Source: an uncultured Thermoplasmatales archaeon (GTDB lineage Archaea; Thermoplasmatota; E2; DHVEG-1). Taken from it: DNA of 50,897 bases. Numbering within the stretch: the first letter of the stretch is position 1; the number at the start of each line of letters is the position of its first letter. Shown here in pieces: positions 4,697-28,017 of this stretch. The translations under genes and the position numbers were made by a program. Where the stretch lies: contig CAZVNH010000001.1 in the NCBI GenBank assembly GCA_964628575.1, forward strand, positions 5,791 to 56,687, read 5' to 3'. Under the pieces are notes generated by a model that worked only from the letters and a program-made list of their open reading frames with translations, ran no database searches and had not been told where the DNA came from.

Positions 4697-6250
4697 TTAA
4701 GCATTAATTGAAGTTGAAGGCTTTTTTTTGGCAAAAAAACCTTTAAACATATCAAAAAGAATTTTTAATATTGATTTTACTGTTTTTATTGAAGTAACGT
4801 TTAGACTAATTAGAAATATAAAATATAATAATATAGAAATTATCGCACCAATCCAGTCGATATTAATAAAGAAATAGACTATTTCATAACATAAAATGGA
4901 TGTAATTGAGGCAAATATTATTTTAAAAAGAACTTTTTCTTTTTTGGAAAGAATTTTCTTTCTATTACAAAAAGTGAAATATATTATGAAAATAATTAAG
5001 GTTGATATCAAAAATCCATATCCCGCAAATAGTAAATTTGAAGTTTGAATGGATAAAATTAAAAAGACTGTATTGGACACTCCAGCAATAATTTCTGCGA
5101 GTAAATTTATCTTTGTTTTATTATTAGCCATTGGGAATTTAGATAAAAATTGATTTAGGCAATAAAAGATTCCCGCAATTATGACTATTTTAAATAAGAC
5201 AATAAAAATTAAGTTAGAGTAATTACGATAAAGTAAATTAATCAAAAAGGGGGAAAATATATAAATTAAAATTAAAGATGTAATTTCTAAAATGGAAATT
5301 AATTGTAGAATAAAATTAGAGATTTTTTTGATTTGATCCATATTATTATCTACAAAAAGCTCTGAAATATATGAATAGGCCATATTGCTTATGGGAATTC
5401 CAATTAAACCTACAAAAATAATAATCAAATTTGTTGACAAATGATAATAAACAGCGTAAATTTGATTAACAGAACTTAAAAGCACTGTTCCTGCCCTAAA
5501 ATTCAAGAAATAAAACACATTCATCAATAAAAGAGGATAACTAAAAATCATGATTTTTTTTCCTATTCCTTTATCCGAATGCTCTATATTCTGTGGAAAT
5601 TGAATTTGAGACTTAAATTTAAAATAAAAGTAGAATCCAAAACTCAAACCACCTAAATACATAAAGATATATAAGATAATTGCCGTAAATGAATTTAGAA
5701 TATTAAGGAATCTCAAAATTAGTAAAATTATTATGAATATGAGACTAATCGATAAGTTCATCATACCTATAACTTTTGATTTCTTCAATCCATAAAAAGC
5801 ACTCTCAAGGATTTTAAAGGAAACGACAGCAATTACACCAATGATTATCATTAAATAAAATGAAATATTGGAGAATTGTGAAACTGTAAAATTGAATCCC
5901 AATAGTACTACTATTGAAAATATAAAGAAGATTACAAAAAAATTACTTAACAAAATTATGAGTATTTTCTTATTAAATGAATGAATTTTATCATGACCAA
6001 TTTCTTGATAAAATTTTGGTAAAACTGCTGGAGTTATAAGCATAAATGCTAGAAATGCACTTATATAACCTATGTAAATAGTATAATTTGATGCACTTAT
6101 TACATCTAACCAATTATAAAGCAATATATCTTTAGCTAAGAACAGAATAAAAAATGAAAAATAATTAAATCCACTAGTTATTGAAATATTTATTACCATA
6201 TTGGTCGATAATTCATCAAAAGAGAGGTCTTCTTTCTCTAGTTCTTTCAA
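4697..6250 (-). CDS. Polytopic membrane protein, possible Wzx/MOP-type oligosaccharide flippase
   Basis: 517 aa with a TTG start in the track. Hydrophobic helices run along the whole length and there is no soluble domain. Size, topology and genomic context fit a flippase. I saw no diagnostic motif. Confidence 0.45.
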   Translation of the reverse strand: MKELEKEDLSFDELSTNMVINISITSGFNYFSFFILFLAKDILLYNWLDVISASNYTIYIGYISAFLAFMLITPAVLPKFYQEIGHDKIHSFNKKILIILLSNFFVIFFIFSIVVLLGFNFTVSQFSNISFYLMIIIGVIAVVSFKILESAFYGLKKSKVIGMMNLSISLIFIIILLILRFLNILNSFTAIILYIFMYLGGLSFGFYFYFKFKSQIQFPQNIEHSDKGIGKKIMIFSYPLLLMNVFYFLNFRAGTVLLSSVNQIYAVYYHLSTNLIIIFVGLIGIPISNMAYSYISELFVDNNMDQIKKISNFILQLISILEITSLILIYIFSPFLINLLYRNYSNLIFIVLFKIVIIAGIFYCLNQFLSKFPMANNKTKINLLAEIIAGVSNTVFLILSIQTSNLLFAGYGFLISTLIIFIIYFTFCNRKKILSKKEKVLFKIIFASITSILCYEIVYFFINIDWIGAIISILLYFIFLISLNVTSIKTVKSILKILFDMFKGFFAKKKPSTSINA

Positions 6251-6361
6251 TAATACTACCTTTGTGTAAAAATTAAGAAGAATTTAATAAGTATAACAAT
6301 AAGAAACTTAAAAGCTATTAATAGTTTTTACCTTTTTAATCTTGAATAAATCCTAACAACT

Positions 6362-7384: not shown

Positions 7385-8224
7385 TTACTTTTTAAACAGA
7401 ATCCTTTTGATCTTCTTAAAAAAATATAAAATAATACATAAAAAAAGCATTAATATTAATTTTCTTAAGATAATATATGAAGATCCAAATTCCCGTGATG
7501 CTAAATTGATCGGAACCTCTTCAATTTTATAACGGCGTAAAACGGCTTGTAAAATTAATTCCGTTGTAAACGCATACCCTTTAAATCTAATATTCTCAAA
7601 GATATTTCTAGTTCTTTTATGAAGTGCCCTAAAACCACTTTGATTATTTTTAATTTTTTGACCAAAAAGAAGTATTATTATTACTTCCATTAATGCTTCT
7701 CCAAGTCGAGTTGCTACAGGCAATTTATAGTTGAAAGTACCTTTATATCTAGATCCTATTGCAATATCCGCATCTCCTTGAATTATAGGTTTAACCAAAT
7801 TGAATATATCTTCTGCTCTATGTTGTCCATCTGAGTCCATTGTGATGATAATTTCCCCTTGACTATGTCGAATTCCTGTAAGAAGAGCTTTTCCGTATCC
7901 CTGATTAATTTTATGTTCAATAATGTGAATATCTCCATCTCGTCTAACTTTTTTTATTTCATTAAGACTCATGTCTGTTGAATGGTCATCAACTACAATA
8001 ACTTCAATCGATTCATTTTTAGGGAGATTTTCCAATACAGTTTTAATTGTGTTTTCTTCATTATAAACAGGGAGTATAATAGAAATAAGCTTGTCGCTAT
8101 TGGTGCGCTTATTTTTGTTAAGATACTCATAAAGTAATTTAAAATTATTTAATTTTCTCGAATTCTTCTTACTTCGGCCTTCCAATAAAGTACTTGATTT
8201 AACGTTTAAGGATGGAGTTGTCAA
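7385..8224 (-). CDS. GT2 glycosyltransferase, polyprenyl/dolichyl-phosphate hexose synthase-like (DPM1/AglJ/ArnC type)
   Basis: 279 aa. Motifs are ISIILPVYNEENTI, VVDDHSTD and TMDSDGQH, with NQSGFRA further on. A C-terminal hydrophobic helix (LILMLFLCIILYFF) is present. Confidence 0.8.
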   Translation of the reverse strand: MTTPSLNVKSSTLLEGRSKKNSRKLNNFKLLYEYLNKNKRTNSDKLISIILPVYNEENTIKTVLENLPKNESIEVIVVDDHSTDMSLNEIKKVRRDGDIHIIEHKINQGYGKALLTGIRHSQGEIIITMDSDGQHRAEDIFNLVKPIIQGDADIAIGSRYKGTFNYKLPVATRLGEALMEVIIILLFGQKIKNNQSGFRALHKRTRNIFENIRFKGYAFTTELILQAVLRRYKIEEVPINLASREFGSSYIILRKLILMLFLCIILYFFKKIKRILFKK

Positions 8225-8478: not shown

Positions 8479-9606
8479 GTGGCTCCATTTTTTAATGAAA
8501 AACCAAATAGAAAATCAAGTTTAATTTTATTAGTTAATGAGTTATCAAAATATGCAAATATAATTATTATATCATCAAAAGTAGAAGGTACAAAGAGTAA
8601 AGAAACAATAAACCCTAATTTGCGAATTTATAGGTTTAAACCTACAATATATTTACCAAAATTACCATATACTCTGGATTTTATATTAATTAAAAGAATC
8701 CTTAAAATTTGTAAAAAAGAAAAATGTGATATAATAATCGGATATAGCCTTCAATTTTTATCATGTTTTTCAGCAGTTATTGCAGCTAAATTGAGCAGAA
8801 TCCCTTTTATTTGCCGAATAGTTGGAGCAAGTAATACTACCAATAAGAATGGAATTGAAATCCTCTCAAAAATATACGATAAATCATTTGCTAGAATTAC
8901 TCTAAAACTATCTGATAAAATTTTTGTACAGACAAAAAGCTTAATATCGAGACCTATAGAATTAGGAGCACCAATATCAAAGATATCTATTGTAGAGGAT
9001 GGAATAGACTTCTCCAGATTTTCTGGAATTGAAGATGAAGATTCACTTAGGAAAAAATTAAAGATAGACAAATCGAATATTATTATTACATTTATTAGCA
9101 GAATTTTTGAACTAAAAGGAATTGAGGATTTGATTGTTGTTGCAAAGCAGATACTAAAAGAACATCAAAATGTGAATTTTTTAATTGCTGGAAGAGGATC
9201 CCTAGAAAAAAAACTTGAACATGAAGCTAGGATAACAAAAAACCTTTTATACCTAGGATATCGAAAGGATGTTCCAAATCTGCTTGCTATTAGTGACATA
9301 TATGTATTACCTTCCTATAGTGAAGGTTTGTCTCCAGCAATACTTGAAGCCATGGCAAGTGGGTTACCAGTAGTTACTACGAATGTAGGGTCCAATCCGG
9401 ATATCAATATAAACGGAAACCATGGAAATTTAATTAATCCAGGAGATCAAATTAATCTTAAAAAAAACATTATTAATTTTATTCAAGATGAGACTTTAAG
9501 AAAGAAAATAGGTACCATTAATAAAAAAAACATCCAAATGAACTTTGATTTGAAGAAAACTGCTTTGAAATTTTTAGGAGAAATTAAAAAACTTTCTTTC
9601 GCTTAG
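8479..9606 (+). CDS. Glycosyltransferase family 4 (GT-B fold)
   Basis: 375 aa counted from GTG at 8479. The EX7E-type block is YVLPSYSEGLSPAILEAMASGLPVVTT. The reading frame is open back to 8413 and encodes a beta1-like IIINIVFV upstream of the GTG (see findings). Confidence 0.75.
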   Translation: MAPFFNEKPNRKSSLILLVNELSKYANIIIISSKVEGTKSKETINPNLRIYRFKPTIYLPKLPYTLDFILIKRILKICKKEKCDIIIGYSLQFLSCFSAVIAAKLSRIPFICRIVGASNTTNKNGIEILSKIYDKSFARITLKLSDKIFVQTKSLISRPIELGAPISKISIVEDGIDFSRFSGIEDEDSLRKKLKIDKSNIIITFISRIFELKGIEDLIVVAKQILKEHQNVNFLIAGRGSLEKKLEHEARITKNLLYLGYRKDVPNLLAISDIYVLPSYSEGLSPAILEAMASGLPVVTTNVGSNPDININGNHGNLINPGDQINLKKNIINFIQDETLRKKIGTINKKNIQMNFDLKKTALKFLGEIKKLSFA

Positions 9607-9642: not shown

Positions 9643-10896
9643 ATGAATGCCCGGAACATTATTTTAGGAATTGATGGAATACCTTTTGAGTTAATGGATT
9701 CTTTATCAGATAAAGGAGTTATGCCAAATTTTAAAGAACTTAAGAGTAATTTTTATTTTAAAGAGATGAAATCATCAATTCCACATATCTCTTCTGTCTC
9801 TTGGAGCTCAATTATAACTGGAAAAAATCCTGGAGAGCATGGAATTTTTGGATTTAGTGAATTAATAGAAGGAACTTACAGTCTTAGTTATCCAAATTTT
9901 AATGCTTTGAAATGTAAACCCTTTTGGCATCAACAGAATGAGAATAAACACGTGATTATAAACGTACCAGCAACCTATCCCGCAAAGATTCTTAACGGGG
10001 TTCATATAGCAGGATTTGTGGCCTTAGATTTAGAAAAAGCTGTATACCCTAAAACTTGTATTCCTAGTTTGAAACAGTTAAACTATGTAATTGATATAGA
10101 TTCAAGTTTAGCCCATAAACAATCTAAAGATATTTTATTTGATGAACTTATGAAAGTTTTAGATATTAGGAAAAATACCTATCAGTTTTTTTGGAATAAA
10201 TTAAATTGGCTTAATTTTATGGTCGTGATTACAAGTTCTGACAGATTTGGACATTTCTTATGGAACACATATGCAAATTCGGATAATAAATGGCATTCAA
10301 GAGCTGTACAATTCTTTCAAAAAATTGATGACTTCATTGGTGATATTAAGGATAAATTAAAAGAAAATGATAATTTTATTATATTATCTGATCATGGAAT
10401 GGAAGAAATAAAACAAAACATGAATTTAAATACATACCTAGAACATGAAGGTTTTCTTAAACTTTCAGATAAATACAAGAATTATAATCGTATCGCAAAA
10501 GGCACAAAAGCGTTTGTATTAGACCCCGGACGCATATATCTCAACAAAGAAGGTAAGTATCCCAATGGTTCTGTATTTAAATCCGAAGAAAAAGAAATAA
10601 TTGCAGATCTAAAAAATATCCTTTATGATTTAAAATATCAAAACCAAAAGGTAATTAGAAAAGTCCATGAAAAGAATGAAATATATAATGGGGTTAATAT
10701 TGATAAAGCACCTGATTTAGTTGTTTTAGAAAATTCTGGATTCCGTCCAAAAGGATCAATTGGAAAAGAATCTATCTTCGAAGAGGATAATTTATCAGGA
10801 ATGCACAATGATAGCGCTTTTCTTTTCATTAATAAAAAAATTAATATACAAAAACCGAACGTTCAAGATGTTATAGGTTTTTTAGGAGGAAATTAA
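9643..10896 (+). CDS. Alkaline-phosphatase superfamily enzyme, type I phosphodiesterase/nucleotide pyrophosphatase-like
   Basis: 417 aa. ILGIDGIPFE carries the metal-binding Asp. SSVSWSSIITGKNPGEHGIFGF is the nucleophile loop followed by TG..P..HG. ILSDHGME is also present. Confidence 0.7.
   Translation: MNARNIILGIDGIPFELMDSLSDKGVMPNFKELKSNFYFKEMKSSIPHISSVSWSSIITGKNPGEHGIFGFSELIEGTYSLSYPNFNALKCKPFWHQQNENKHVIINVPATYPAKILNGVHIAGFVALDLEKAVYPKTCIPSLKQLNYVIDIDSSLAHKQSKDILFDELMKVLDIRKNTYQFFWNKLNWLNFMVVITSSDRFGHFLWNTYANSDNKWHSRAVQFFQKIDDFIGDIKDKLKENDNFIILSDHGMEEIKQNMNLNTYLEHEGFLKLSDKYKNYNRIAKGTKAFVLDPGRIYLNKEGKYPNGSVFKSEEKEIIADLKNILYDLKYQNQKVIRKVHEKNEIYNGVNIDKAPDLVVLENSGFRPKGSIGKESIFEEDNLSGMHNDSAFLFINKKINIQKPNVQDVIGFLGGN
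10884..10889 (+). promoter_or_regulatory. Shine-Dalgarno-like AGGAGG 9 nt upstream of the ATG at 10899
   Basis: AGGAGG lies inside the 3' end of the preceding CDS. The gap between that stop and the next start is 2 nt, consistent with operonic translation. Confidence 0.5.
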
Positions 10897-10898
10897 GA

Positions 10899-12416
10899 AT
10901 GGATAAAATGCATAATTCTGATAAAACTTGTTGGAATTGCCCCGCAGCTAAATTAATGGGTAATGTTGACTTTAGAGCTTGTGGTCAAGCACGTGAGTTT
11001 AAAGCTGGCTTGGATGAAGAGGAAGAGATCGTTATTGAATGTCGAAGACGTCCTGAACTTGGGTATTTTGAACCTAATATCACATTTGAACAATGTCCAG
11101 AATGGATCGCTTCTGAATACGGGTATATACTAAAAAATATGAGAGTAATGATCTTAGGTATTGATGGATATTTAGGTTGGACATTAGCTTTAAAATTAGG
11201 GAAATTAGGGTTTCAAATTAGCGGACTTGATAACTACACTCGCCGTGATTGTGTAATGGAAAAAGGAGCTCATACAATTATTCCTATTGAGAGAATGACA
11301 CAAAGATTAAAAATTGCTCGTGACATTTTGGGAATAAATATTAATTTCCGCAAAATAGATCTTCTTGATGCATCAAAAGTCAGAGAGTTTTTAGAAGAAG
11401 TTAAACCTGAAGCTATAGTTCATTATGGTGAAATTCCGAGTGCTCCGTACAGTATGGCTGACTCTGAACATGCTGTTAGAGTACAAGAAAATAATGTAAT
11501 AGGAACTCTGAAACTATTATGGATAATAAAAGATGTCGTTCCTGAAACCTGTCTAATTAAATTGGGGACGATGGGAGAGTATGGATCTCCATTAACTGGG
11601 CGACCACTTTTCGAAGGCTTATTCCCTGCAGATGCTATAATCAAATGGGATGAACGCGAATGGAGTCTAGGAGGAGAAACAACGCCTAGAGATCCAGTTA
11701 GTTTTTATCATGCAAGTAAGGTTCAAGACACTTTCAATGTTTTAGAAGCTTGTAAATATTGGTGGTTACGTTCTTATGATATTATGCAAGGTGTAATTTA
11801 TGGTGTCTATACTGAAGAATTGGCTGTAGATAAGAAGTTAAGGACAAGATATGATATTGATGAATGGTTTGGTACGGTTATTAATAGATTTGTAGCGCAA
11901 GCAGTGACAGGAATACCATTAACAATATATGGACAAGGTGAACAAATCAGAGGTTTCATTGCGCTAAATGATGCAATGCAATGTATGATTAGATTAATAG
12001 TTTCTCCCCCAGAACCTGGACAATATGATGTAGTTAATCAAGTTTCCGGATTGTACAAAATTAGTGACTTAGCAGAAGCGATTGCTAAGATTGGTAATAA
12101 AAAATTTAATTTGAATGTAATGATAAAAAGAATTGAAAACCCAAGAGTAGAAGCCGATAATCATCCACTTGAAGTAGTTTCGAGAAAATTGCCAAGATTT
12201 TTTGGATTTACACCACAAATAGATTTAGAAGAAGAAATTGAGAGAATGATTGAGGTGTTACTAGAAGAAGAAATTAAAAAGCGTATTGATTTGAAAAAAC
12301 ATACAATCCTACCAGTCACTACATGGCAAGGAGAAAAACGAGAAATGAAAGAATTAGAAAAGTATGAACCTGGAACAAGAGAATCTAAAGGATATAAACC
12401 AATATTTGATACATAA
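10899..12416 (+). CDS. sqdB: UDP-sulfoquinovose synthase (SQD1/SqdB/Agl3 family) with an ~80-aa Cys-rich N-terminal extension
   Basis: 505 aa. From M81 onward (MRVMILGIDGYLGW) the sequence tracks my memory of plant SQD1 block by block: GDGYxGW, HxGExxSAPYSM, NNVIGTLxxL, KLGTMGEYG, SFYHxSKVxD, NQGVxYG, FGTxxNRFxxQA, PLTxYGxGxQxRG and NPRVEAxxH. The catalytic T (in GTMGEYG) and the Y-H-x-x-K are present. Confidence 0.85.
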   Translation: MDKMHNSDKTCWNCPAAKLMGNVDFRACGQAREFKAGLDEEEEIVIECRRRPELGYFEPNITFEQCPEWIASEYGYILKNMRVMILGIDGYLGWTLALKLGKLGFQISGLDNYTRRDCVMEKGAHTIIPIERMTQRLKIARDILGININFRKIDLLDASKVREFLEEVKPEAIVHYGEIPSAPYSMADSEHAVRVQENNVIGTLKLLWIIKDVVPETCLIKLGTMGEYGSPLTGRPLFEGLFPADAIIKWDEREWSLGGETTPRDPVSFYHASKVQDTFNVLEACKYWWLRSYDIMQGVIYGVYTEELAVDKKLRTRYDIDEWFGTVINRFVAQAVTGIPLTIYGQGEQIRGFIALNDAMQCMIRLIVSPPEPGQYDVVNQVSGLYKISDLAEAIAKIGNKKFNLNVMIKRIENPRVEADNHPLEVVSRKLPRFFGFTPQIDLEEEIERMIEVLLEEEIKKRIDLKKHTILPVTTWQGEKREMKELEKYEPGTRESKGYKPIFDT

Positions 12417-12733
12417 TGATGGAAGTTACAGATAAAAATTTTGAACAGGAAATCCTCAATTCAGAAGTTCCTGTATTAATCGAATTTTGGGCATCTTGGT
12501 GTGTTCCCTGTAAAGCTATGGAATATTTGTTAAAAGAATTGGATAAACAATATAATGGAAAAATAAAAATAGCTAAACTAAATATTGATAGACAGAGAAA
12601 AACTCCGAAAAAATATGATTTGACGGGGGTTCCAACTTTTGCTACTTTTTTAAAAGGAACCTTGAAGGAAATGGTTGTAGGGGCTCAAACAAAAAAGAAT
12701 TTAATCCTTATGATTGAAAATTTAATAAAATGA
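12416..12733 (+). CDS. trxA: Thioredoxin
   Basis: 105 aa. The active site is WCVPC, a WCGPC variant. The cis-Pro loop GVPT is present and the length is typical for the Trx fold. ATG 12416 overlaps the last base of the upstream stop TAA (12414-12416). Confidence 0.85.
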   Translation: MMEVTDKNFEQEILNSEVPVLIEFWASWCVPCKAMEYLLKELDKQYNGKIKIAKLNIDRQRKTPKKYDLTGVPTFATFLKGTLKEMVVGAQTKKNLILMIENLIK

Positions 12734-12930: not shown

Positions 12931-14577
12931 ATGAGAGCGAACCAGGTGAATGCAGAAGAAAGTATAGAGAAAATGAACAATCTCGAACCAGATATAAGTT
13001 CCCTTAAGAGAGAAAAATTTAATAATCCCCTAATCTCAGTAGTAATACCTCTCTATAATGAAGAAAATACAATTAGAAATATAATTGAAAGGATACCTAA
13101 TCATCGACGGTATGAAATCCTTTTAGTTGACGATGGTTCAACTGATAATAGTTTAAATAATATCCAAGATATCAATAATCGAGATCTTAAGATTATTAAA
13201 CATAAAAATAATCAAGGATATGGGGCAGCAGTACTATCTGGTCTTAAGAATGCCACTGGTGATATCATTGTTACAATGGATTCAGATGGTCAGCATAATC
13301 CTGAAGAAATATCTACTATTATAAAACCAATCCTTAATCAAAAGGCAGATTTAACAGTAGGATCAAGATATTTAGGTAATGCTAATTATAGGGTTCCTCT
13401 CTATATACGTACGGGAGAATATTTTATAAGATTATGTTTAAAACTTTTATTTAAGCAAAGAGTTTATAATAACCAAAGTGGATTTCGAGCTTTTAGTTCT
13501 TCCAGCTTAAAAATATTTAATAATATTAAACAAACTAAGTTTGGATTTTGTACTGAAACTCTATTTGAAGCAGCTCACAGTAGATTAAAAATTTCTGAAA
13601 TTCCAGTTAATATGAATATGAGGAAATACGGAAGTACAAACATCAATTTATTGAAAGTCGCAATTTCAATTTCATCATGCATAATAAATTACTTTTTGAA
13701 AAGGATCAAACTAACTAAATTTAATACAAACAGAATTTCAACGAATAATCTATTATTGAAGCAAAGTAGTGTGAGTAAGCATCCATATGAAAAAGAATTG
13801 GCTCTAAAGGATAATTATATATATCCTAATTTAAAAATTGGACTTATAATTCCTGCATTTAATGAGGAATTAAATATTCGAAAAGTATTATTGAGTATAC
13901 CAAAGAATCTTTCAAATGAATTAAAAATATTAGTAATTGATGATGGTTCTACAGATAGAACTTATGAAATTGCTAAATCTTTAAATTGTATTGTTTTAAA
14001 ACATAAACAGAATAAAGGAAATGGAGCTGCAACTATAACAGGTTTAAATTATTGTAGAGAGAATGATTATGAAGTTGCAGTCATATTAGATGCTGATGGT
14101 CAACATAATCCAAAACATATTACTGATTTTATTAATCCAATAATTGAAAATAGAGTCGATTTCACAATTGGAAATCGATTTAAATATCCTTACAAGATGA
14201 ATACAAATAAGAAATTATGCTCAAAATTGATAACTGCCTTTTATTTTGTAATCTTACGGAAAAAAATATCAGACCCTACAAATGGTTATCGTGCATTATC
14301 AAGTAAAATATTTAAAAATGTAAATTTCGATTCGAATTATTCAATTACTCAAGAAATGCTATATAAAATAGTTCCTTTTTATAAGTTCAAGCAAATTCCT
14401 ATTTTAGTTAATGAAAGGAAAAATGGAGAGTCATTTATTAAATTAAATAAATACTTTTTCAAAATGGTTTTAATGCTACTTAAATATTACATATTTCCAA
14501 AATTTAGAAAAATAACAAGGAAGATTTTCAATAAAAAGATAAGAAGAATTATTACTTCTTCTGTTTTAAAAACATAA
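12931..14577 (+). CDS. Tandem GT2-GT2 fusion glycosyltransferase (two DPM1-like modules)
   Basis: 548 aa. Module 1 has ISVVIPLYNEENTI, LVDDGSTDNS, TMDSDGQH and NQSGFRAF. Module 2 has IGLIIPAFNEELNI, VIDDGSTDRT, LDADGQH and TNGYRAL. A short hydrophobic or amphipathic stretch follows each module. Confidence 0.8.
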   Translation: MRANQVNAEESIEKMNNLEPDISSLKREKFNNPLISVVIPLYNEENTIRNIIERIPNHRRYEILLVDDGSTDNSLNNIQDINNRDLKIIKHKNNQGYGAAVLSGLKNATGDIIVTMDSDGQHNPEEISTIIKPILNQKADLTVGSRYLGNANYRVPLYIRTGEYFIRLCLKLLFKQRVYNNQSGFRAFSSSSLKIFNNIKQTKFGFCTETLFEAAHSRLKISEIPVNMNMRKYGSTNINLLKVAISISSCIINYFLKRIKLTKFNTNRISTNNLLLKQSSVSKHPYEKELALKDNYIYPNLKIGLIIPAFNEELNIRKVLLSIPKNLSNELKILVIDDGSTDRTYEIAKSLNCIVLKHKQNKGNGAATITGLNYCRENDYEVAVILDADGQHNPKHITDFINPIIENRVDFTIGNRFKYPYKMNTNKKLCSKLITAFYFVILRKKISDPTNGYRALSSKIFKNVNFDSNYSITQEMLYKIVPFYKFKQIPILVNERKNGESFIKLNKYFFKMVLMLLKYYIFPKFRKITRKIFNKKIRRIITSSVLKT

Positions 14578-17066: not shown

Positions 17067-18839
17067 TTAATTAAATACAAGGTTAAACCATTCTTCAAAT
17101 ATATATAAGCTCCACATTTTCTGCGATAAGTAAAAGTTCTTTTTATTCTGGGTCTTCAATCTATTAATTAATTTCTTAGCATATTTTTTATTATAAATTT
17201 GGTGTTTATTACTTTCTAATAAATCAGAAAATCTATCAATTAATAATTCTTTAAACCAATATTCAATTGGGACATTATAACCTCTTTTTCTTCTCTTAAT
17301 AATAGATTTGGGTAAAAAATTGCTGTAAGTTTTTTTTAAAATATATTTTTCATTCCATAAGTGAAGTTTTAATCTTATGGGAAGGTTTAAAGCAAAATTA
17401 ACCATTCTATAATCCATATAGGGGACCCTCTCTTCAAGACCGTATGCAGAACTCATTTTATCAGCTTTAAAGAAGAAATCTTCTGGCATTAATGTATTTA
17501 GGTCAAAAAACTGCATTTTTTGGAACAAATCTCCCTTATTATTCCAATAGTCATTTATACCTCTTGATTTGATTCTTAAATATTTAAGATCACTTTCCTC
17601 GAATACTCTTATTGTTTCAAGATAACCTTGATGTTCAGGCATAGATGAAAAATTTGATAACCTATTAATAATTTCGCTCTTCATATTAATTTTAGGAATA
17701 AGTTTTGATAAAAATTTTCCATAATAATAAAATTTATATTTATCATAACCTCCAAAAATTTCATCTGAACCTTCTCCTGCGAGCACAACTTTATTATATT
17801 TACTAGCTAACTCTGAGATAAGTAATGTAGGGAAAAATCCAGGATCACCAATCGGTTCATCCATATGATATATCATTTTTTCAATATTTTTTAAAACATC
17901 ATCAATAGTTATCAATAGCTCATGATGATTTGTATTAAAATAATCAGAGACTATTCTTGCATACTTTAATTCGTTTGAAACATCAAATCCTACTGAGAAT
18001 GTATTAATATCATTATTAAATTCTGAAGCAATTCCCGTTAAAATACTTGAATCAATTCCGCCAGACAAAAAACAAGCGACAGGTACATCAGCAATCATTC
18101 TTAATTTAACTGAATCAAATAACAAATGATATAATTCTTTCTTTGCTATTTTTAAATTAATTTTTCTAGTATTTAGATTCAGAGAATCATTGTATTTATG
18201 AATTTTCATTTCTTTCGTTTTTAAATTAAAAAGTAAATAATGATAAGGTTTTAATTTAGAGATCTCTCTGAAAAAGGTTTTCGGTGCTAATGAATACCGA
18301 AAAGTTAGATAATCTATAACCGCATCTAAATTTAATTTTAAATCCAAATCATATTGAAGAATTGACTTAATTTCAGATCCAAATATAAAATTTTGATCTT
18401 TAAAATAGAAATATAACGGTTTAATACCAAATCTGTCTCTGGATAGAAAAAGTATATTTTTATTAACATCATAAATACAAAAAGCAAATTGACCATTTAA
18501 ATAGGATAAACAATCAATCCCAAATTCTTCATATAAGTGAATAATCACTTCAGTATCTGTTTCTGTATAGAATTTATGCCCTTCTTTTTCTAAAAAATTT
18601 CTATGGTATTTATAATTATAAATTTCTCCATTGAAAATAATCCAAATTGAATTATCTTCATTATGCATTGGTTGTTTTCCTTGAGGAGATAAATCAATTA
18701 TAGAAAGTCTTGTATGTCCTAACGATAAATTGTCATCTATTAAACTTCCTTTATCATCAGGACCCCTGTGTTTCAAATTAGTTATCATTTTATTAATTAA
18801 ACTTCGGTCAGACCAATTAAAACCACAAATTCCACACAT
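17067..18839 (-). CDS. asnB: Asparagine synthetase (glutamine-hydrolysing) family amidotransferase
   Basis: 590 aa. The N-terminus MCGICGF carries the Ntn nucleophile Cys2. The PP-loop is FLSGGIDSS. Length is typical of AsnB. Confidence 0.9.
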   Translation of the reverse strand: MCGICGFNWSDRSLINKMITNLKHRGPDDKGSLIDDNLSLGHTRLSIIDLSPQGKQPMHNEDNSIWIIFNGEIYNYKYHRNFLEKEGHKFYTETDTEVIIHLYEEFGIDCLSYLNGQFAFCIYDVNKNILFLSRDRFGIKPLYFYFKDQNFIFGSEIKSILQYDLDLKLNLDAVIDYLTFRYSLAPKTFFREISKLKPYHYLLFNLKTKEMKIHKYNDSLNLNTRKINLKIAKKELYHLLFDSVKLRMIADVPVACFLSGGIDSSILTGIASEFNNDINTFSVGFDVSNELKYARIVSDYFNTNHHELLITIDDVLKNIEKMIYHMDEPIGDPGFFPTLLISELASKYNKVVLAGEGSDEIFGGYDKYKFYYYGKFLSKLIPKINMKSEIINRLSNFSSMPEHQGYLETIRVFEESDLKYLRIKSRGINDYWNNKGDLFQKMQFFDLNTLMPEDFFFKADKMSSAYGLEERVPYMDYRMVNFALNLPIRLKLHLWNEKYILKKTYSNFLPKSIIKRRKRGYNVPIEYWFKELLIDRFSDLLESNKHQIYNKKYAKKLINRLKTQNKKNFYLSQKMWSLYIFEEWFNLVFN

Positions 18840-21130: not shown

Positions 21131-22243
21131 ATGATTGGAAAAAATTCTTTAGAACAAAAAATCTGCATTATAATGGGAACTCGCCCTGAAATTATAAAGT
21201 TTGCCCCTCTAATCAGGGAATTTGAATGCGAAGGATTTGATTTTGATGTCATTTTTACTGGTCAACATTATGATTATCGATTATCAAAAGTATTTTTTAA
21301 AGACTTAAATTTAGAGAATCCCAATTACCATTTAAAAATTGGGAAAGGAAGCCAAGGAATGCAAACAGGTAAAATACTCATTAAGTTAGAAAAAATCTTA
21401 AATAATATCAAACCTAATATAGTATTAGTTCAAGGAGATACTAATTCTGCTTTAGCTGGGGCGCTTAATGCAGTAAAATTACAAATAAAACTTGGACATA
21501 TCGAAGCAGGACTTCGTTCTTATGATTATCGTATGCCAGAAGAGCATAATAGACGAATAATAGATCATATTTCAGATTTATTGTTTGCTCCTACGGATAA
21601 TTCTGTGGAAATTCTAAAAAGCGAGAATGTACGAGGAAAAATATACAATACTGGAAATACCGTAATTGATGCGTGTATTCAGCATTTAAAATTAGTTGAG
21701 GAAAAATCGAATATAATGTCAAATATTCCCTTTAATAATTTTATATTGGTAACCTCACACAGAGCAGAAAATGTTGATAATCCTAATATTTTAAAGAATT
21801 TAACAGATTTGTTTCTAGATATACCTAAAAAAATTGTATTTCCATTACATCCTCGTACAAGGAAAAGACTAAAGCAGTATGGGCTATATGAAAAATTAAT
21901 AAATGCTAAGCATATTCTCATTTTACCCCCCCTAGGTTATTTTGATTTGTTGAAATTAATGCAGAAATGTGATTTTATTATCACTGACTCAGGCGGAATT
22001 CAGGAAGAAGCCACAGCTCCAGGGATAAATAAATTTACCTTTGTGATAAGAAAAACTACTGATAGACCTGAATCATGTGAAGTTGGATTTAGTAAATTAG
22101 TAGGTACAACTAAAAATGATATTTTAAATTCTATTAAAGTTTTTCTTAAAAATAGAACAGACGTACCAAATAAATCTCCTTATGGTGATGGCCATACTAG
22201 TAAAAAAATATCTTCAATAATTCTAAAAGAATTAAAAAATTAA
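21131..22243 (+). CDS. wecB: UDP-N-acetylglucosamine 2-epimerase (non-hydrolysing)
   Basis: 370 aa. Family blocks present are IMGTRPEIIKFAPL, VQGDTNSALAGALNA, HIEAGLRS, PEEHNRR and DSGGIQEEA. Confidence 0.9.
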   Translation: MIGKNSLEQKICIIMGTRPEIIKFAPLIREFECEGFDFDVIFTGQHYDYRLSKVFFKDLNLENPNYHLKIGKGSQGMQTGKILIKLEKILNNIKPNIVLVQGDTNSALAGALNAVKLQIKLGHIEAGLRSYDYRMPEEHNRRIIDHISDLLFAPTDNSVEILKSENVRGKIYNTGNTVIDACIQHLKLVEEKSNIMSNIPFNNFILVTSHRAENVDNPNILKNLTDLFLDIPKKIVFPLHPRTRKRLKQYGLYEKLINAKHILILPPLGYFDLLKLMQKCDFIITDSGGIQEEATAPGINKFTFVIRKTTDRPESCEVGFSKLVGTTKNDILNSIKVFLKNRTDVPNKSPYGDGHTSKKISSIILKELKN

Positions 22244-23328: not shown

Positions 23329-25404
23329 TCAAATTATTTTTTTTGCGAAAGTCCAATTCCCTTGATTTTTGTATATTATCTCAAATTCTGTTAACAATTC
23401 ATTATTAAAATCATTATTAAAACTATTTATATTAAAAAATAAATATTCAATATTAGTGTCTTTATAAAAACTCCTGAAACCTTTATAATCTGAGAATATA
23501 TAAAAGTTTATAATGATTTTATTTAGTTTTGGATAGTTTAATAAATCATAATTAGTGTACCATAAATAATATTTGTAATTTACTTTTTCTATAAGAATAA
23601 TTGTATCACTTAAAGGTGGGTTTTCATTAAAATGATTACAAGTAAACAGAATAGCATCAGTATGGCTATCTTGAAAATATTGAAAATATTGAACTCTTTT
23701 AAAGTTATTAAAATATAAAAATAGACTAGTACTAACTATTAAAGAAATTGAGATAATTCTTGTTATTTTCTTAGAGATCTTTTTTCTTATCTGAAAATTT
23801 ATCTTAATAATCTTTAATTTTTTAACTGTTTTTCTAAAAAATCTTAGTAGGAATATAAATGTAAGAGAAAAAATTAAAGCCCATAAACCCGCAAATAACT
23901 CAAAAAATCTTTTAAAAAATCTGGAGAAAAAGTTTATTCCAGTTGATAATATTGTTGAACAAAAAAATATATCAATAATATATAAAATTACATAACATAA
24001 AAAAGTTAGGAAGAATGTGAACTTTATAAAATTTGCTAGATTTATTTGTTTCTGCTTGAGATTATAATGTTTTTTGAAAGGTATATATAAACCTAAGACA
24101 ACTACTAAGATACTAATCCCCAAGGTTTCATCAGTAAATCTTGTAAAAATACTTAAAATACCCTTTTCAAAATTCGGAGAAGATATTTGGATAAAATTAC
24201 TATAAAACATCCTATTAATAAATAAATCATAAAAACCTTTAACAATGTCAACAGTCATAATTAAATTATCTAAAAGAAAATTTGGTATTTTTAATACAAT
24301 AAAAGCGCTATAATATTCAAAAATATTAAATTTCAGTCTAAAAGAAGTTATCAATATAAATGGATATACAAACAATATGATTATTAGAAATAAATAAAAC
24401 TCCTCAAGGTAAAATTTTTTCCAATTTGGAATTTTTTTGATTCTCATTTTATTTGCTTTAATTTCTATTTTAAATGATGATAAAAGTTCATATAAAAAGA
24501 AAAAAAATAAAATATACAACCCATAAAGCTGATGACATAATAAAAGCCCTCCTATTATAATACCCCTAATTTCTACTTTTTTTATTGATTTTTTTAACTC
24601 AAATGAACAAAGAAATAAATAAACTAATGTCGTTGCTAATGTTGATGGAACTAATAGGGTATATCTATAAGCTGAATAATTAAAACTTAAATAAATTACC
24701 AAAGTCATGAATATATTTATGTTTTTTTTGAAAAATGATTTTGAAATGCAATGAAGTGAAATTAAATTAATACTCATTAATATTAATGGAAAATATTTAC
24801 AAAAATAATAGAATAAATAATAATCATCGACGAATGATACAATTGTGCAGCAGAAATAAACATAACCGTTAGGAAAAGTATCGTAAGAATTATAATCAAG
24901 AAAACCATTTTCATGTAAATACCAGATTTCTTTTGACCAAATGTAAGGATCATTACTAGCTAATGACAAGGATCTTGAAATGAAATAATTCTGCAGTATA
25001 AACATCATTATAATTGAGATTATTAAAGGCCAATAATCTAGAAAAAACTTTTTTAAATTAGTTTTTAAATGATCTTTACTCATCGAAAGAGTGAAATTCT
25101 TTTTCTTTAAAATATAAATTACAAAAGTAAAATCTATTATTATAAACGGCAAATATATTGAAATGAAGTTAAATGGTAAAAAATAATTTAATATTATTGA
25201 AAAGAAAATGTGAACACTTATCCCAACTGCTAAATAAATCAATATATTAGACAATTTTGTTTGATTATAAGTTCTTTTCTTGTCTAGAAGAAAAAATATA
25301 ATGTAACCAAAAATTGTAAAAATAATAAGATAAAAAACCGAAAGTAAAATTATTATTAAGAGATACATATTAGGGTAATTACTTATTTTTAAAAAAAAAT
25401 TCAC
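23329..25404 (-). CDS. Large polytopic membrane protein, GT-C-like glycosyltransferase or polymerase candidate
   Basis: 691 aa. Layout is about 4 N-terminal TM helices, a basic linker, one TM helix, then the loop LASNDPYIW, many further TM helices and a C-terminal soluble domain of about 130 aa. The proteins at 31125 and 48662 have the same layout. Confidence 0.5.
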   Translation of the reverse strand: MNFFLKISNYPNMYLLIIILLSVFYLIIFTIFGYIIFFLLDKKRTYNQTKLSNILIYLAVGISVHIFFSIILNYFLPFNFISIYLPFIIIDFTFVIYILKKKNFTLSMSKDHLKTNLKKFFLDYWPLIISIIMMFILQNYFISRSLSLASNDPYIWSKEIWYLHENGFLDYNSYDTFPNGYVYFCCTIVSFVDDYYLFYYFCKYFPLILMSINLISLHCISKSFFKKNINIFMTLVIYLSFNYSAYRYTLLVPSTLATTLVYLFLCSFELKKSIKKVEIRGIIIGGLLLCHQLYGLYILFFFFLYELLSSFKIEIKANKMRIKKIPNWKKFYLEEFYLFLIIILFVYPFILITSFRLKFNIFEYYSAFIVLKIPNFLLDNLIMTVDIVKGFYDLFINRMFYSNFIQISSPNFEKGILSIFTRFTDETLGISILVVVLGLYIPFKKHYNLKQKQINLANFIKFTFFLTFLCYVILYIIDIFFCSTILSTGINFFSRFFKRFFELFAGLWALIFSLTFIFLLRFFRKTVKKLKIIKINFQIRKKISKKITRIISISLIVSTSLFLYFNNFKRVQYFQYFQDSHTDAILFTCNHFNENPPLSDTIILIEKVNYKYYLWYTNYDLLNYPKLNKIIINFYIFSDYKGFRSFYKDTNIEYLFFNINSFNNDFNNELLTEFEIIYKNQGNWTFAKKII

Positions 25405-26721: not shown

Positions 26722-28017
26722 ATGAAATTTATTAAATCTTTTAAATATAAAATTTCCAAAGATTTTGCATATACACTTCTGGGTAATATTTTTTATGCGG
26801 GTATAAATTTCATAAGTCTTGCATTAATTGCACGTTTTTTAGGACCATATCAATTTGGAGATTTTTCATTGCTATATGCTATATTATCGATGATTGTAAT
26901 TATTATTGATTTTGGGATGGGAGTTAGTGTAGTAAAATTCTCATCAGAATTTTATTCTCAAAAAAAATTTGAGGAGTTTAGAGGATTGTTCAGTATATCA
27001 TTTAAAATAAAATTATATATCTCTATACTTGTATTTATAATCGGAATAGTCTCTTCACAATTGATCTCCACTGTTATATTAAATAATGCTAATTTAACAA
27101 TTCCCTTAATATTAGTATTTATTGGAGGAATAGGCCTTTCCTTATTTGATTTCATGAAATTATATTTTCAATCAAAACAAGAATTTGGAAAATATTCACT
27201 TTATCTTATAATATCCGCATCATTGCAATTTATTTTAATTATATTAATAAGTAACTTTTTTTTCTTGAATTTACTCAATTCAATTTTTATTTTTTGCTTA
27301 ATTCCTTTTATACTATTTTTTGTGATGCTTGTATTAATTGATAAAAGTATTATTTTTTCAAATGTTAAAGCGCAGAATTACAAAAAGATTTTAAATTTCA
27401 ATATTTACATTATTATTTCAAGTCTTTGTGCAATGCTATATAATCGTATTGATTTATTCTTTTTAAATAGCCTCTTAAGTAATAATTCTGTTGGATTATA
27501 TTCAGCAGCTTATCAAACGGCGATTATGATAACATTATTAACTAATAGTATATCCTTTATTCTTTTACCTAAAATTTCCAGTTTACTTAAACCAAAAGAA
27601 ATTAGAGACGCTTATAAAAATATTCTCAAATATTTTTCACTGGTCTATTTAATTATAATTCCTATCGCTTTTATTACTCCTTTCTTAATGATTTTTCTGT
27701 ATGGTATAGAATATTCTCAATCTATTTCAATTTTTCAGATTTTAATATTCTCAATAGGGTTGTCTATTATAATTAATCCACTCTCTATTTTAATATACAA
27801 AGTAAATAAACCCTATATCATTACGATTACGCTTTTATGTGAAATAATCTTTATTATATTATTCGAACCTTTATTTATTCATCTTTTTTATGAATATGGA
27901 GTTGTATATATTAATATTATAACTCATGTCATAGCACTAACCGTCAATATTGCATATCTCTACTATAGACTATATATAAATGATTCGGACCTTGAAGAAT
28001 CATTAAAATTAATTTAA
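26722..28017 (+). CDS. Wzx/PST-family oligosaccharide flippase
   Basis: 431 aa with about 12 TM helices. The N-terminal segment KDFAYTLLGNIFYAGINFISLALIARFLGPYQFGDFSL resembles polysaccharide-biosynthesis (MOP/PST) proteins. Confidence 0.7.
   Translation: MKFIKSFKYKISKDFAYTLLGNIFYAGINFISLALIARFLGPYQFGDFSLLYAILSMIVIIIDFGMGVSVVKFSSEFYSQKKFEEFRGLFSISFKIKLYISILVFIIGIVSSQLISTVILNNANLTIPLILVFIGGIGLSLFDFMKLYFQSKQEFGKYSLYLIISASLQFILIILISNFFFLNLLNSIFIFCLIPFILFFVMLVLIDKSIIFSNVKAQNYKKILNFNIYIIISSLCAMLYNRIDLFFLNSLLSNNSVGLYSAAYQTAIMITLLTNSISFILLPKISSLLKPKEIRDAYKNILKYFSLVYLIIIPIAFITPFLMIFLYGIEYSQSISIFQILIFSIGLSIIINPLSILIYKVNKPYIITITLLCEIIFIILFEPLFIHLFYEYGVVYINIITHVIALTVNIAYLYYRLYINDSDLEESLKLI

Follow-up and report, generated by a model that had tools for sequence, protein, structure and literature searches.

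A five-cysteine domain fused to a predicted UDP-sulfoquinovose synthase, its conserved phosphodiesterase-family and thioredoxin partners, and a possible route of sulfite supply in uncultured archaea and bacteria

The window, by which we mean the whole 50.9-kb stretch of archaeal DNA that was analysed, carries a three-gene cassette flanked by genes for glycosyltransferases. The features considered here are the following:

7385..8224, minus strand, second GT2 glycosyltransferase, 279 aa, of the same neighbour cluster as the GT2 at 12931..14577 and divergent from the cassette operon
8479..9606, plus strand, GT4 glycosyltransferase (Pfam Glycos_transf_1), 36 nt 5' of the PDE gene
9643..10896, plus strand, PDE gene, the first of the cassette, 417 aa, alkaline-phosphatase superfamily, PF01663 (type I phosphodiesterase / nucleotide pyrophosphatase family)
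10884..10889, plus strand, AGGAGG Shine-Dalgarno-like motif read from the sequence, within the 3' end of the PDE gene
10899..12416, plus strand, long-form UDP-sulfoquinovose synthase-like gene, 505 aa plus stop, from the open reading frame list and homologues
10899..11138, plus strand, Cys5 domain, residues 1-80, from its conserved cysteine pattern and third-codon-position bias
11139..12329, plus strand, SQD1/SqdB/Agl3-like extended-SDR catalytic domain, residues 81-477, from the PDB 1i24 match, Foldseek and NCBIfam NF041015
12330..12413, plus strand, conserved C-terminal tail, residues 478-505, from near-invariant columns of a 75-sequence alignment
12416..12733, plus strand, thioredoxin (Trx), 105 aa, WCVPC, PF00085, with a 1-nt overlap with the synthase stop
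12931..14577, plus strand, tandem GT2 glycosyltransferase, 548 aa, PF00535 matched twice

The three genes of the cassette are tightly packed. The TAA of the PDE gene ends at 10896, leaving 2 nt before the synthase ATG at 10899, and the AGGAGG motif does lie 9 nt before that ATG, as had been stated in the preliminary description. At the other end of the synthase gene the stop region reads TAATGATGG and the Trx ATG begins at 12416; the TAATG found there means that one base is common to the synthase TAA and the Trx ATG, and the overlap of 1 nt reported earlier can thus be read directly in the sequence. A scan of the operon for bacterial promoters and terminators returned fewer matches than shuffled sequence.

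Arabidopsis SQD1 (PDB 1i24, E 9e-78) can be aligned with residues 81-477 over their whole extent, and in this alignment T224, Y270, H271 and K274, all invariant in 75 homologues, correspond to T145, Y182, H183 and K186 of SQD1, which bears out the earlier assignment of the region from residue 81 to the SQD1/SqdB/Agl3 type with the catalytic Thr and the Y-H-x-x-K retained. The GxxGxxG NAD-binding motif (G87-I-D-G90-Y-L-G93) is also invariant in the 75-sequence alignment. The best Foldseek matches were the SQD1 structures 1qrr and 1i24 (for 1qrr, E 1.7e-36 and a TM of 0.84 normalised to target), and the full-length AlphaFold model, with a pLDDT of 78 and low confidence at residues 22-42 and 224-286, confirmed the SQD1 fold. 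The NCBIfam model UDPsulfquin_syn (NF041015) is covered over positions 1-384 of 384 with 407.8 bits, below its equivalog cut-off of 575, and the identity between the long-form synthase and SQD1 is 36%, while archaeal and bacterial long-form synthases are 63-70% identical. The alignment with SQD1 stops at residue 477, and the tail formed by residues 478-505, with the pattern G478-x-K480 ... E487-x-Y489-x-P491-G492, is not found in SQD1. The reading frame at 10899-12416 is confirmed at the level of sequence as an SQD1/SqdB/Agl3-type UDP-sulfoquinovose synthase with an additional N-terminal domain, its activity being predicted.

The 80 additional N-terminal residues quoted in the preliminary description match the start of the 505-aa reading frame exactly, and they follow the pattern C11-x2-C14-P ... 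C28-G-Q ... E47-C48-R-R51-P-E-L-G-x-F-E-P ... C66-P-E-W. Across 255 unique sequences, conservation reaches at least 99% at each of C11, C14, C28, C48, C66 and R51, in agreement with the conservation of the segment and of its five cysteines on which the earlier proposal had been made to depend, and three variants lacking C28 have an additional Cys at position 9. The best 120 database homologues are all of about 505 aa and cover this N-terminal stretch, with 67-94% identity. In a comparison of the first 240 nt with six close relatives, 26-46 differences fall at third codon positions versus 1-16 at first and second positions, which argues that the Cys5 stretch is translated. The alternative, that these residues are an annotation artefact with translation from M81 and a non-coding leader of 240 nt, can point to the invariance of M81 across the 75 homologues, but it is extremely improbable given that the 80 codons are kept at the protein level in more than 20 phyla, that the third-position substitution bias of the 240 nt is strong, that the domain also occurs as an independent gene, and that only 2 nt separate the PDE stop from ATG 10899, itself preceded by a well-spaced Shine-Dalgarno-like motif. 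As a sole start the internal ATG is ruled out by conservation, codon-position bias and stand-alone domain genes, and, M81's invariance notwithstanding, it is not needed to explain the gene.

Profile searching showed the Cys5 domain to be rare, with matches to just 44 of 1.84 billion representative proteins, among which its fusion partner is the synthase and never the PDE. The profile searches and structure prediction that had been suggested for residues 1-80 were run: no NCBIfam match was found, phmmer against the PDB gave none at E up to 10, and a Pfam search with 10 diverse members at E up to 10 yielded nothing beyond two single chance-level matches. The domain-only AlphaFold model (pLDDT 71) is a small beta-rich fold, with 0 Foldseek matches in the PDB. 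Assignment to a known zinc-ribbon or Fe-S family was rejected, as all four of these searches came back empty; the cysteine spacing, for which a HiPIP-like or ferredoxin:thioredoxin-reductase-like arrangement was considered, is matched to neither by any tool result. In the full-text literature, searched for sulfoquinovose or SQD1 together with thioredoxin, phosphodiesterase, Asgard, DPANN or sulfate adenylyltransferase, no description of this architecture was found, and an Asgard glycoproteomics paper mentions sulfoquinovose for its Sulfolobus controls only; as far as these databases and texts reach, the earlier impression of an undescribed architecture is upheld. On the sequence evidence, the N-terminal 80 residues are a real, translated and previously undescribed five-cysteine domain.

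The order PDE, Cys5-synthase, Trx recurs at about 140 loci, spread over upwards of 20 phyla of archaea and bacteria, all of them uncultured and apparently anaerobic; the carriers were judged apparently strict anaerobes by record titles that name sediments, brines and vents. Carriers include Asgard archaea, Thermoplasmatota, DPANN, Bathyarchaeia, Hadarchaeota, Chloroflexota, Patescibacteria, Planctomycetota, Omnitrophota and others, and the cassette was found in 80 species-representative genomes and again in 62 metagenome loci, the latter by a scan that used a five-member alignment. The PDE gene lies immediately 5' of the Cys5 domain in 71 of 77 genome loci and in 52 of the 54 metagenome loci with room, that is, those whose contig extends far enough for the neighbouring gene; Trx lies just 3' of the synthase in 79/81 genome loci and 43/44 metagenome loci with room, so that the recurrent adjacency anticipated in the preliminary description is borne out. 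Since both the 80-residue segment with its cysteines and the adjacency of Trx turned out to be conserved, neither of the observations named beforehand as grounds for abandoning the finding was made, and the finding stands. The PF01663 protein is a third partner in the cassette, which the earlier account did not include. In 20 loci a free-standing Cys5 protein of 66-88 aa is encoded directly 3' of a PDE gene, mostly with a 4-nt overlap, and these PDEs are orthologous to those of the cassette and have the same catalytic residues. The most constant partner of the Cys5 domain is the PDE and not Trx, and this holds even where the domain is free-standing. These pairs have a thr operon and a CapA-like gene as neighbours, with no sulfur-related gene and no adjacent Trx; the idea that the ThrC-like gene found there might encode a cysteate synthase was dropped, the gene being grouped with thrB, ask and asd. 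In a single lineage (loci L089-91) a free Cys5 protein accompanies a short-form synthase, with neither PDE nor Trx nearby.

The PDE scores 128 bits against Pfam PF01663 (gathering cut-off 23), and a profile search of the PDB found only distant matches to NPP1, PhnA and Xanthomonas NPP, with E from 1e-7 to 1e-5. Across 67 cassette orthologues the conserved residues are D11, S50, T59, N62, H66, D200, R201, H204, D250, H251 and H388, with S50 at the nucleophile position and D11, S50, D200, H204, D250, H251 and H388 invariant; no conserved Cys was found among the same orthologues. Because the binuclear-metal site is complete and the Ser nucleophile is kept, the PDE is predicted to be an active enzyme rather than a scaffold. 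Database names of its relatives, among which no close homologue has been characterised, are generic ('alkaline phosphatase family protein' or 'predicted AlkP superfamily phosphohydrolase/phosphomutase'), and no database names were found for the proteins of the window themselves. Trx matches PF00085 with 95 bits and TIGR01068 with 96.1 bits (cut-off 96.8), and of its active-site cysteines C29 is conserved in 100% and C32 in 97% of 79 cassette thioredoxins; as the redox-active CxxC is kept, a disulfide or thiosulfonate substrate is expected. Neither a PAPS_reduct domain (PF01507) nor an ECG[LI]H motif was found in the PDE, Cys5, synthase or Trx, and consequently the cassette may work like CysH without being a member of its family.

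In about 20 loci, some 15%, CysD plus CysN, Sat, CysC, Sat-CysC or CysNC is encoded within 6-8 kb of the cassette; for the genome loci the count is 12/80, or 13/80 if two loci with only a CysD-like gene are taken as one doubtful case, and about 85% of loci have no sulfate-activation gene in their flanks. None was found inside the window, in which a sulfatase-family gene is located at 41810-43333. Four loci (L014, L018, L028 and L038) present the co-directional string PDE, synthase, Trx, RHH, CysD, CysN, and in L057 Sat-CysC lies directly 5' of the PDE gene; an SLC13-type transporter and a TauE/SafE protein are also among the cassette neighbours. By their predicted functions, the co-directional strings encode all steps from sulfate to UDP-sulfoquinovose except a reductase. 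In L013, L019, L049 and L160 a sulfotransferase is also present near the PAPS genes and could be their real client where both occur. A canonical Fe-S APS reductase (CysH, with CC..CxxC and ECGIH) was found at a single locus of about 170, L121, where it occupies the position of the PDE gene. This is also the only locus in which the PDE is shrunk to a 43-codon stub, and a gene other than Trx follows the synthase within the 149 nt left on the contig; the locus is one 3.6-kb metagenome contig, and its synthase still has the Cys5 domain.

As judged from gene content, the cassette of the window lies inside a surface-glycan island. The tandem GT2 at 12931..14577 matches a GT2 neighbour cluster (phmmer E 3e-238) which is present in 45/80 loci, mostly right after Trx, and shows NCBIfam similarity to AglJ and dolichyl-phosphate hexose transferase (DPM1/AglJ-like); this enzyme is the likely user of the sulfosugar. 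The GT4 gene at 8479..9606 is probably in the same transcript as the PDE gene, an arrangement upstream of PDE which is found only in close Asgard relatives (L001 and L002).

How UDP-sulfoquinovose synthases are supplied with sulfite in vivo has been an acknowledged open question ever since the characterisation of SQD1; in vitro the isolated enzymes work slowly, and the involvement of a partner protein is a suspicion of long standing (PMC4388408). We tentatively hypothesize that the fused synthase is fed with sulfite by a dedicated reductive system, made up of the PDE, the Cys5 domain and Trx and starting from APS or PAPS. In CysH enzymes, a Cys thiolate attacks activated sulfate to form S-sulfocysteine, which is resolved by thioredoxin to free sulfite. 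By analogy, Sat, CysDN or CysC, often encoded next door, would activate sulfate to APS or PAPS, the PDE would bind the adenylyl-sulfate and its sulfo group would be passed to a Cys5 thiolate as S-sulfocysteine ("bound sulfite"), while the other cysteines of the domain might form a metal or Fe-S site holding it together. Trx would then reduce the thiosulfonate and release sulfite beside the fused synthase, and the DPM1/AglJ-like GT2 could move the sulfosugar onto a lipid carrier for a cell-surface glycan. The three components would thus do the work of CysH plus thioredoxin in canonical sulfate assimilation, channelled to one enzyme, and the cassette would be a self-contained UDP-sulfoquinovose unit for anaerobes without free sulfite; the free-standing PDE and Cys5 pair may serve general sulfite supply. 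Each step is put forward conditionally, since the scheme is drawn from sequence and gene context. The wider proposal, that this is a previously unrecognised non-CysH (P)APS reductase, a 'bound-sulfite' relay that channels into a sulfonate-forming enzyme and has spread by horizontal transfer through Asgard archaea, DPANN, CPR and many other anaerobic lineages, is as a whole somewhat doubtful.

The recurrence of the three-gene module, the pairing of PDE with Cys5, the sulfate-activation neighbours, the displacement at L121, the intact CxxC of Trx, the metal site of the PDE and the slowness of isolated synthases were counted in favour of the proposed relay, and the fusion of Cys5 to the synthase and never to the PDE is the arrangement expected of a carrier shuttling between two active sites. 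Against it, PF01663 enzymes usually attack phosphorus, which on APS would give AMP and sulfate and no sulfo-thiol; the PDE has no conserved Cys, most loci lack a sulfate-activation gene, the free PDE and Cys5 pairs have neither sulfur neighbours nor Trx, L089-91 have neither PDE nor Trx, L121 is one contig on which Cys5 is kept, and a sulfotransferase may be the PAPS client in four loci. Alternatively, Cys5 could be a small zinc or Fe-S module that solely docks the PDE, in cis or in trans, with Trx just keeping its cysteines reduced for metal loading, and with the PDE acting on a nucleotide of the pathway, as a candidate for clearing the reactive side product UDP-glucose-5,6-ene, hydrolysing PAP or AMP, or converting UDP-sulfoquinovose to sulfoquinovose-1-phosphate. 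The constant, translationally coupled PDE and Cys5 pair fits such an adaptor, as do the CP motifs (C14-P15 and C66-P67) in the modelled beta-rich small fold, the extra Cys at position 9 in the three C28-less variants, which resembles a ligand swap, and the confinement of the long form to uncultured, apparently anaerobic lineages, compatible with an oxygen-sensitive cluster; it is also known that Agl3, if deprived of sulfite, releases UDP-glucose-5,6-ene (PMC4388408). Nevertheless, an adaptor gives no reason for a dedicated, co-encoded and redox-active Trx or for the joint loss of PDE and Trx at the sole CysH-adjacent locus, and the invariant cysteines are five and not four, suggesting one non-ligand; we regard the adaptor as rather unlikely.

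The redox gate suggested in the preliminary description, in which a regulatory disulfide or redox-sensitive metal site in Cys5 keeps the synthase off until Trx reduces it, the PDE having a separate job, would account for the near-universal adjacency of Trx with its stop/start overlap, for five invariant cysteines including a CxxC and for the intact Trx active site. It leaves unexplained, however, the tighter tie of Cys5 to the PDE, seen also where free Cys5 lies beside a PDE without synthase or Trx, as well as the sulfate-activation neighbours and the displacement at L121, and in apparently strict anaerobes an oxidative off-state would seldom be expected; we consider it unlikely. Very unlikely, in our view, is a different nucleophile and product, with Cys5 and Trx passing another sulfur species, for example persulfide or sulfide derived from thiosulfate or cysteine, on to the 5,6-ene intermediate to give a 6-thio or otherwise 6-modified UDP-sugar. 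The sub-cut-off NCBIfam score (408 versus 575), the 36% identity to SQD1 and the presumably sulfidic habitats of the carriers, with sulfide plentiful and sulfite scarce, leave room for it, but the synthase still has the catalytic T, Y, H and K and shows full-length collinearity with SQD1, the recurrent neighbours belong to sulfate activation and not to cysteine desulfurases, rhodaneses or sulfur-carrier proteins, and what replaces PDE and Trx at L121 is a canonical APS reductase, a producer of sulfite. Between the two functions first put forward for the domain, simple redox gating thus loses ground, and we lean towards the other, in which a module that handles metal or sulfur is tied to the supply of sulfite, because the PDE is the most constant partner of Cys5, sulfate-activation genes cluster with the cassette and CysH occurs only at L121, where the PDE is degraded and Trx does not follow.

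The cassette offers a compact and directly testable candidate for the route of sulfite to the synthase, defines a new conserved domain, Cys5, and provides a first functional context for a large group of proteins annotated merely as 'alkaline phosphatase family protein'. If the proposed relay is real, it would be an additional enzymatic solution for the reduction of sulfate to sulfite, and it would explain sulfonated cell-surface sugars in sulfide-dependent, tiny-genome anaerobes (DPANN, CPR and Asgard). A further prediction is that sulfoquinovose, which is among the major organosulfur compounds of the environment, has producers in anoxic sediments that have so far gone uncounted.

Compared with known systems, the long-form synthase shares with SQD1, SqdB and Agl3 the extended-SDR fold, the GxxGxxG motif, the catalytic Thr, the Y-H-x-x-K and full-length collinearity, and with Agl3 of Sulfolobus acidocaldarius also a context of glycan synthesis. 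In contrast, SQD1 (Arabidopsis), SqdB (cyanobacteria) and Agl3, of about 390 aa, have neither the Cys5 domain nor the conserved C-terminal tail, and there is no description of an obligatory PDE or Trx neighbour for any of the three; from SQD1 the long form also differs by its low identity and its score under the equivalog cut-off. The complex of SQD1 with ferredoxin-dependent glutamate synthase in spinach chloroplasts (cited in PMC4388408) is a precedent for a UDP-sulfoquinovose synthase that needs a partner for efficient use of sulfite in vivo, although the partner described there is a flavoprotein, not encoded in an operon, with no Cys domain, PDE or Trx. The PDE belongs to the same Pfam family as NPP1, Xanthomonas NPP and PhnA, all distant from it (E 1e-7 by profile), and has their two-metal site and the position of their Ser/Thr nucleophile, but its nucleophile is Ser where NPPs have Thr, W54 takes the place of the NPP Asn-His region, and neither NPPs nor PhnA are known to have a small Cys-rich partner protein. 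To our knowledge, an alkaline-phosphatase-superfamily enzyme has never been shown to act as the nucleotide-binding partner in a reduction of this kind. Bacterial APS reductases contain a Cys-ligated Fe-S cluster and plant APR has a fused thioredoxin-like domain, and both CysH and APR serve here as a working analogy, with no relationship to the cassette in sequence or fold. Likewise, ArsC, whose fold and substrate are unrelated to those of the cassette, is an analogy only, in which the reduction of an oxyanion proceeds by way of a covalent adduct on Cys and a relay of cysteines, with thioredoxin bringing about the final resolution.

The synthase gene is the middle member of a three-gene cassette, of which the preliminary description had overlooked the upstream partner: a gene of the alkaline-phosphatase superfamily (PF01663, hereafter PDE) ends 2 nt 5' of ATG 10899, its TAA stop ending at 10896, and a thioredoxin gene (Trx) follows the synthase. 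The cassette lies within a large surface-glycan biosynthesis island that takes up the whole window (1-50897; GC about 26%, range about 21-36%) and, judged by nearest relatives, is Asgard/Promethearchaeota. The island contains many GT4 (at least six) and several GT2 glycosyltransferases, an SDR epimerase, methyltransferases and a radical-SAM enzyme, and includes the following features:

4697-6250, 23329-25404 and 31125-33389: large ORFs without a Pfam match
7385-8224 and 12931-14577: members of a recurrent GT2 group
9643-10896: PDE
10899..12416, plus strand: synthase ORF, 505 aa
12416..12733: Trx
17067-18839: AsnB-like amidotransferase
21131-22243: UDP-GlcNAc 2-epimerase
26722-28017: Wzx-like flippase
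41810-43333, minus strand: sulfatase-family gene (PF00884)

Near the cassette, sulfatase-like genes turn up again at other fetched loci (L008, L044, L069, L077). No sulfate-activation genes were found in the 50.9-kb window.

Every detail of the initial observation on the synthase held. The ORF is 505 aa long and begins with the 80 residues originally quoted, the AGGAGG described 9 nt before ATG 10899 is read at 10884-10889, and the reported 1-nt overlap with Trx, a standard thioredoxin with WCVPC, corresponds to one base common to the synthase TAA and the Trx ATG (TAATGATGG). Likewise, the SQD1-type identity, with its Thr and Tyr-His-x-x-Lys, was borne out by an end-to-end alignment of residues 81-477 with Arabidopsis SQD1 (1i24, E 9e-78), in which T224, Y270, H271 and K274 correspond to T145, Y182, H183 and K186 of SQD1, and by the AlphaFold model of the full-length protein (pLDDT 78, pTM 0.83), whose best PDB match is SQD1 (E 1.7e-36). 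The NCBIfam equivalog model is matched over its full length, yet with 408 bits, short of the cut-off of 575, and the synthase is therefore placed in a distinct branch of the SQD1/SqdB/Agl3 family. Some homologous genes that carry the N-terminal extension (838-848 aa; P0065, P0095 and L104 7971-10487) harbor an intein exactly between G223 and T224 (KLG|C...GN|TMGE), which makes the catalytic Thr the +1 extein residue.

The 80-residue extension, here termed the Cys5 domain after C11, C14, C28, C48 and C66, is a translated, conserved and real domain. The best 120 matches in a collection of 5.8 billion proteins are all about 505 aa long, cover the whole query, extension included, at 67-94% identity, and have among their named sources Lokiarchaeota, Thor-, Hermod- and Hodarchaeota, Thermoplasmatota, Diapherotrites, Natronoplasma and Patescibacteria. 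In alignments of 21 and 75 sequences, residues 1-80 are conserved equally with the catalytic core, the five Cys and the block E47-C48-R-R51-P-E-L-G-x-F-E-P included, and each Cys, as well as R51, is conserved in at least 99% of 255 unique sequences; only the acidic stretch at about residues 31-44, also of low confidence in the model, is poorly conserved. Against six close relatives, the first 240 nt display 26-46 third-position differences, compared with 1-16 in the other two codon positions. An artefactual start codon, with translation beginning at the internal Met81 (11139-11141), is thus effectively refuted. M81 is invariant in 75 long-form proteins, and its codon lacks a preceding Shine-Dalgarno-like motif in the window sequence; this residue could be structural or permit a minor short isoform. 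The domain has no match among Pfam, NCBIfam or PDB sequences, and its separate model (pLDDT 71) matches no PDB fold. A profile search of 1.84 billion representative proteins returned only 44 matches; P0137, a repeat protein of 1083 aa hit in 11 places (TQCPPxITGHTGY repeats), was disregarded as an apparently spurious hit to low-complexity sequence.

The suspected recurrence of the synthase-thioredoxin adjacency was confirmed across a genome set of 80 species-representative long-form loci, all from MAGs and 63-95% identical over residues 1-505. By phmmer neighbor tabulation, 79 of 81 sources have a Trx homologue directly 3' in the same orientation, the two others having the synthase at or near a contig end, and the PDE lies directly 5' in 71 of the 77 sources with room for it. 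In an independent set of 62 metagenome loci, Trx was found in 43/44 and the PDE in 52/54, and at the sole Trx miss (L134) the synthase gene is split and Trx still follows. These counts define the unit as PDE > Cys5-synthase > Trx, and not as a synthase-Trx pair alone. Carriers in the genome set include, among archaea, Asgard, Theionarchaea, Thermococci, Altiarchaeales, Hydrothermarchaeales, Thermoplasmata, Aenigm-, Iain- and Woesearchaeota, Bathy- and Hadarchaeota, and, among bacteria, Armatimonadota, Fibrobacterota, Saccharibacteria, Lentisphaerae, Planctomycetota, Chloroflexota, Thermodesulfobacteriota, Omnitrophota, Auribacterota and Nitrospinae; the spread amounts to hundreds of species in over 20 anaerobic, mostly uncultured phyla. 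Synthase identity between archaea and bacteria is 63-70%, which indicates strong constraint together with horizontal transfer.

The Cys5 domain is primarily a companion of the PDE. Its 44 profile matches include genuine small proteins (68-87 aa) that stop after the domain with the five Cys retained, and a free-standing Cys5 gene was found directly 3' of an orthologous PDE at 20 loci, comprising their contigs and a metagenome scan seeded with them, mostly with a 4-nt overlap and on contigs without synthase or Trx; the neighbors of these pairs are uninformative. Free Cys5 genes without a recognizable PDE occur at L082 and L143, and in one lineage (L089-L091) the gene (P0149, about 5980-6252) belongs to a glycan and methyltransferase cluster starting with a 400-aa SQD1-like gene. 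There it sits amid methyltransferases, a B12-radical-SAM enzyme and glycosyltransferases, 5.7 kb downstream of that short-form first gene (1-289), with no PDE or Trx within 6 kb. The domain is accordingly known in three arrangements, namely as part of the synthase, with the PDE gene before it and Trx after it (the dominant form), as a free protein after the PDE, and as a free protein in a cluster that has a short-form synthase, a pattern that fits a small module mediating between PDE and synthase; no PDE-Cys5 fusion was seen in the profile search. The PDE itself has a full two-metal site with Ser at the nucleophile position (D11, S50, D200, H204, D250, H251, H388) and no Cys conserved among cassette PDEs. 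NPP1, Xanthomonas NPP and PhnA are only distant relatives, and public databases offer generic names but no specific one.

When all neighbors of the 80 genome loci were clustered and recurrent groups annotated, the commonest fourth gene was a small DPM1/AglJ-like GT2 (45/80 loci), usually straight after Trx, followed in frequency by sulfate-activation genes; most loci have no sulfate genes within their flanks. Both window GT2 genes listed above, 7385-8224 and 12931-14577, belong to this DPM1/AglJ-like group. CysD and CysN occur at L014, L018, L025, L028, L038 and L060 (the last also with a TauE/SafE protein), CysD and CysNC at L048, Sat with a DHH phosphoesterase, CysC and a sulfotransferase at L013, L019 and L049, and an SLC13-type transporter with a Sat-CysC fusion directly 5' of the PDE at L057; further cases are L104, L144, L160 and L167. 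Several loci form a single co-directional string, PDE > synthase > Trx > (GT2) > RHH protein > CysD > CysN, covering sulfate activation, a sulfite-consuming synthase and a disulfide reductant, without a sulfite-producing reductase. The protein, ribbon-helix-helix (RHH)-like in appearance (about 75 aa, TTVSIPxxLxxKxKxRxEGTGFxSxSxYxxYVLRQ, no NCBIfam match), stands between the cassette and CysD/Sat, sometimes at a divergent junction (L018 7826-8053; L014, L019, L025, L028, L038, L049, L144, L160). In L093 (1815-2012) and L094 it comes after the free-standing Cys5 gene, and it is a candidate for a shared regulator. Several loci have another PF01663 protein, shorter at about 255 aa, next to CysD and CysN (L014 10139-10927; L015 8274-9032, minus strand; L018 8054-8827). 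At L013, L019, L049 and L160, the cassette is adjoined by a block of Sat, the DHH phosphoesterase, CysC and a small protein of the sulfotransferase family. This block resembles a set for PAPS synthesis and PAP removal, and suggests O-sulfation plus C-sulfonation of the same glycans.

Sulfite is the required nucleophile of SQD1-type enzymes, and canonical (P)APS reductases (CysH) produce it from APS or PAPS via an enzyme S-sulfocysteine resolved by thioredoxin. Based on the conserved gene order, the intact catalytic residues of the three enzymes, the five Cys with R51 and the association with sulfate activation, we tentatively prefer a reading in which PDE, Cys5 and Trx supply sulfite to the fused synthase. 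The PDE would bind APS or PAPS and the sulfo group would pass to a single Cys of the domain, the others holding a metal or cluster; Trx would free sulfite at the synthase, and the GT2 would then use the UDP-sulfoquinovose. C48, within the E-C-R-R-R-P block beside the invariant Arg, is a candidate acceptor. Weak points of this sulfite relay are that PF01663 enzymes usually act on phosphorus, a reaction that would turn APS into sulfate, that most loci have no sulfate genes in their flanks, that neighboring sulfotransferases may be the true clients of some PAPS genes, and that the neighbors of the free-standing PDE and Cys5 pairs offer no clue. The in vivo route of sulfite to SQD1 or Agl3 is treated as an open question in the literature, and SQD1 co-purifies with a partner protein (PMC4388408).

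A structural Zn or Fe-S adaptor docking a nucleotide-processing PDE appears somewhat unlikely, and in its favor three variants lacking C28 bear an extra Cys at position 9, which, in so tiny a sample, hints at a ligand swap in a metal site. The Trx-operated redox gate on the synthase originally proposed is in our view unlikely, and a different sulfur nucleophile or product highly improbable.

With a bona fide APS reductase as query, about 170 loci yielded exactly one gene (L121; ECGIH, CC..CxxC), all remaining PAPS_reduct matches being CysD ending in GYM. At L121 (938-1943) this canonical Fe-S enzyme of 211 aa lies immediately 5' of a 43-codon PDE remnant, the sole case of such truncation, in which GIDG has become GING before the frame is lost and only 370 nt of about 1,260 nt expected are left; 3' of the synthase, the remaining 149 nt of contig hold a different gene, not Trx. 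This one short contig possibly represents a natural non-orthologous displacement of PDE (and Trx) by CysH.

In a comparison with known systems, fold and catalytic residues put the catalytic domain in the SQD1/SqdB/Agl3 family, although it scores under the equivalog cut-off, and Trx and PDE are ordinary members of their own superfamilies. The mode of action of the cassette may resemble that of CysH plus Trx. It does not belong to that family, having neither a PAPS_reduct domain nor an ECGLH motif, and only a demonstrated reductive relay would make it categorically new. New features are the Cys5 domain and its constant pairing with a PF01663 enzyme, together with the universal cassette of three genes and the breadth of its distribution.
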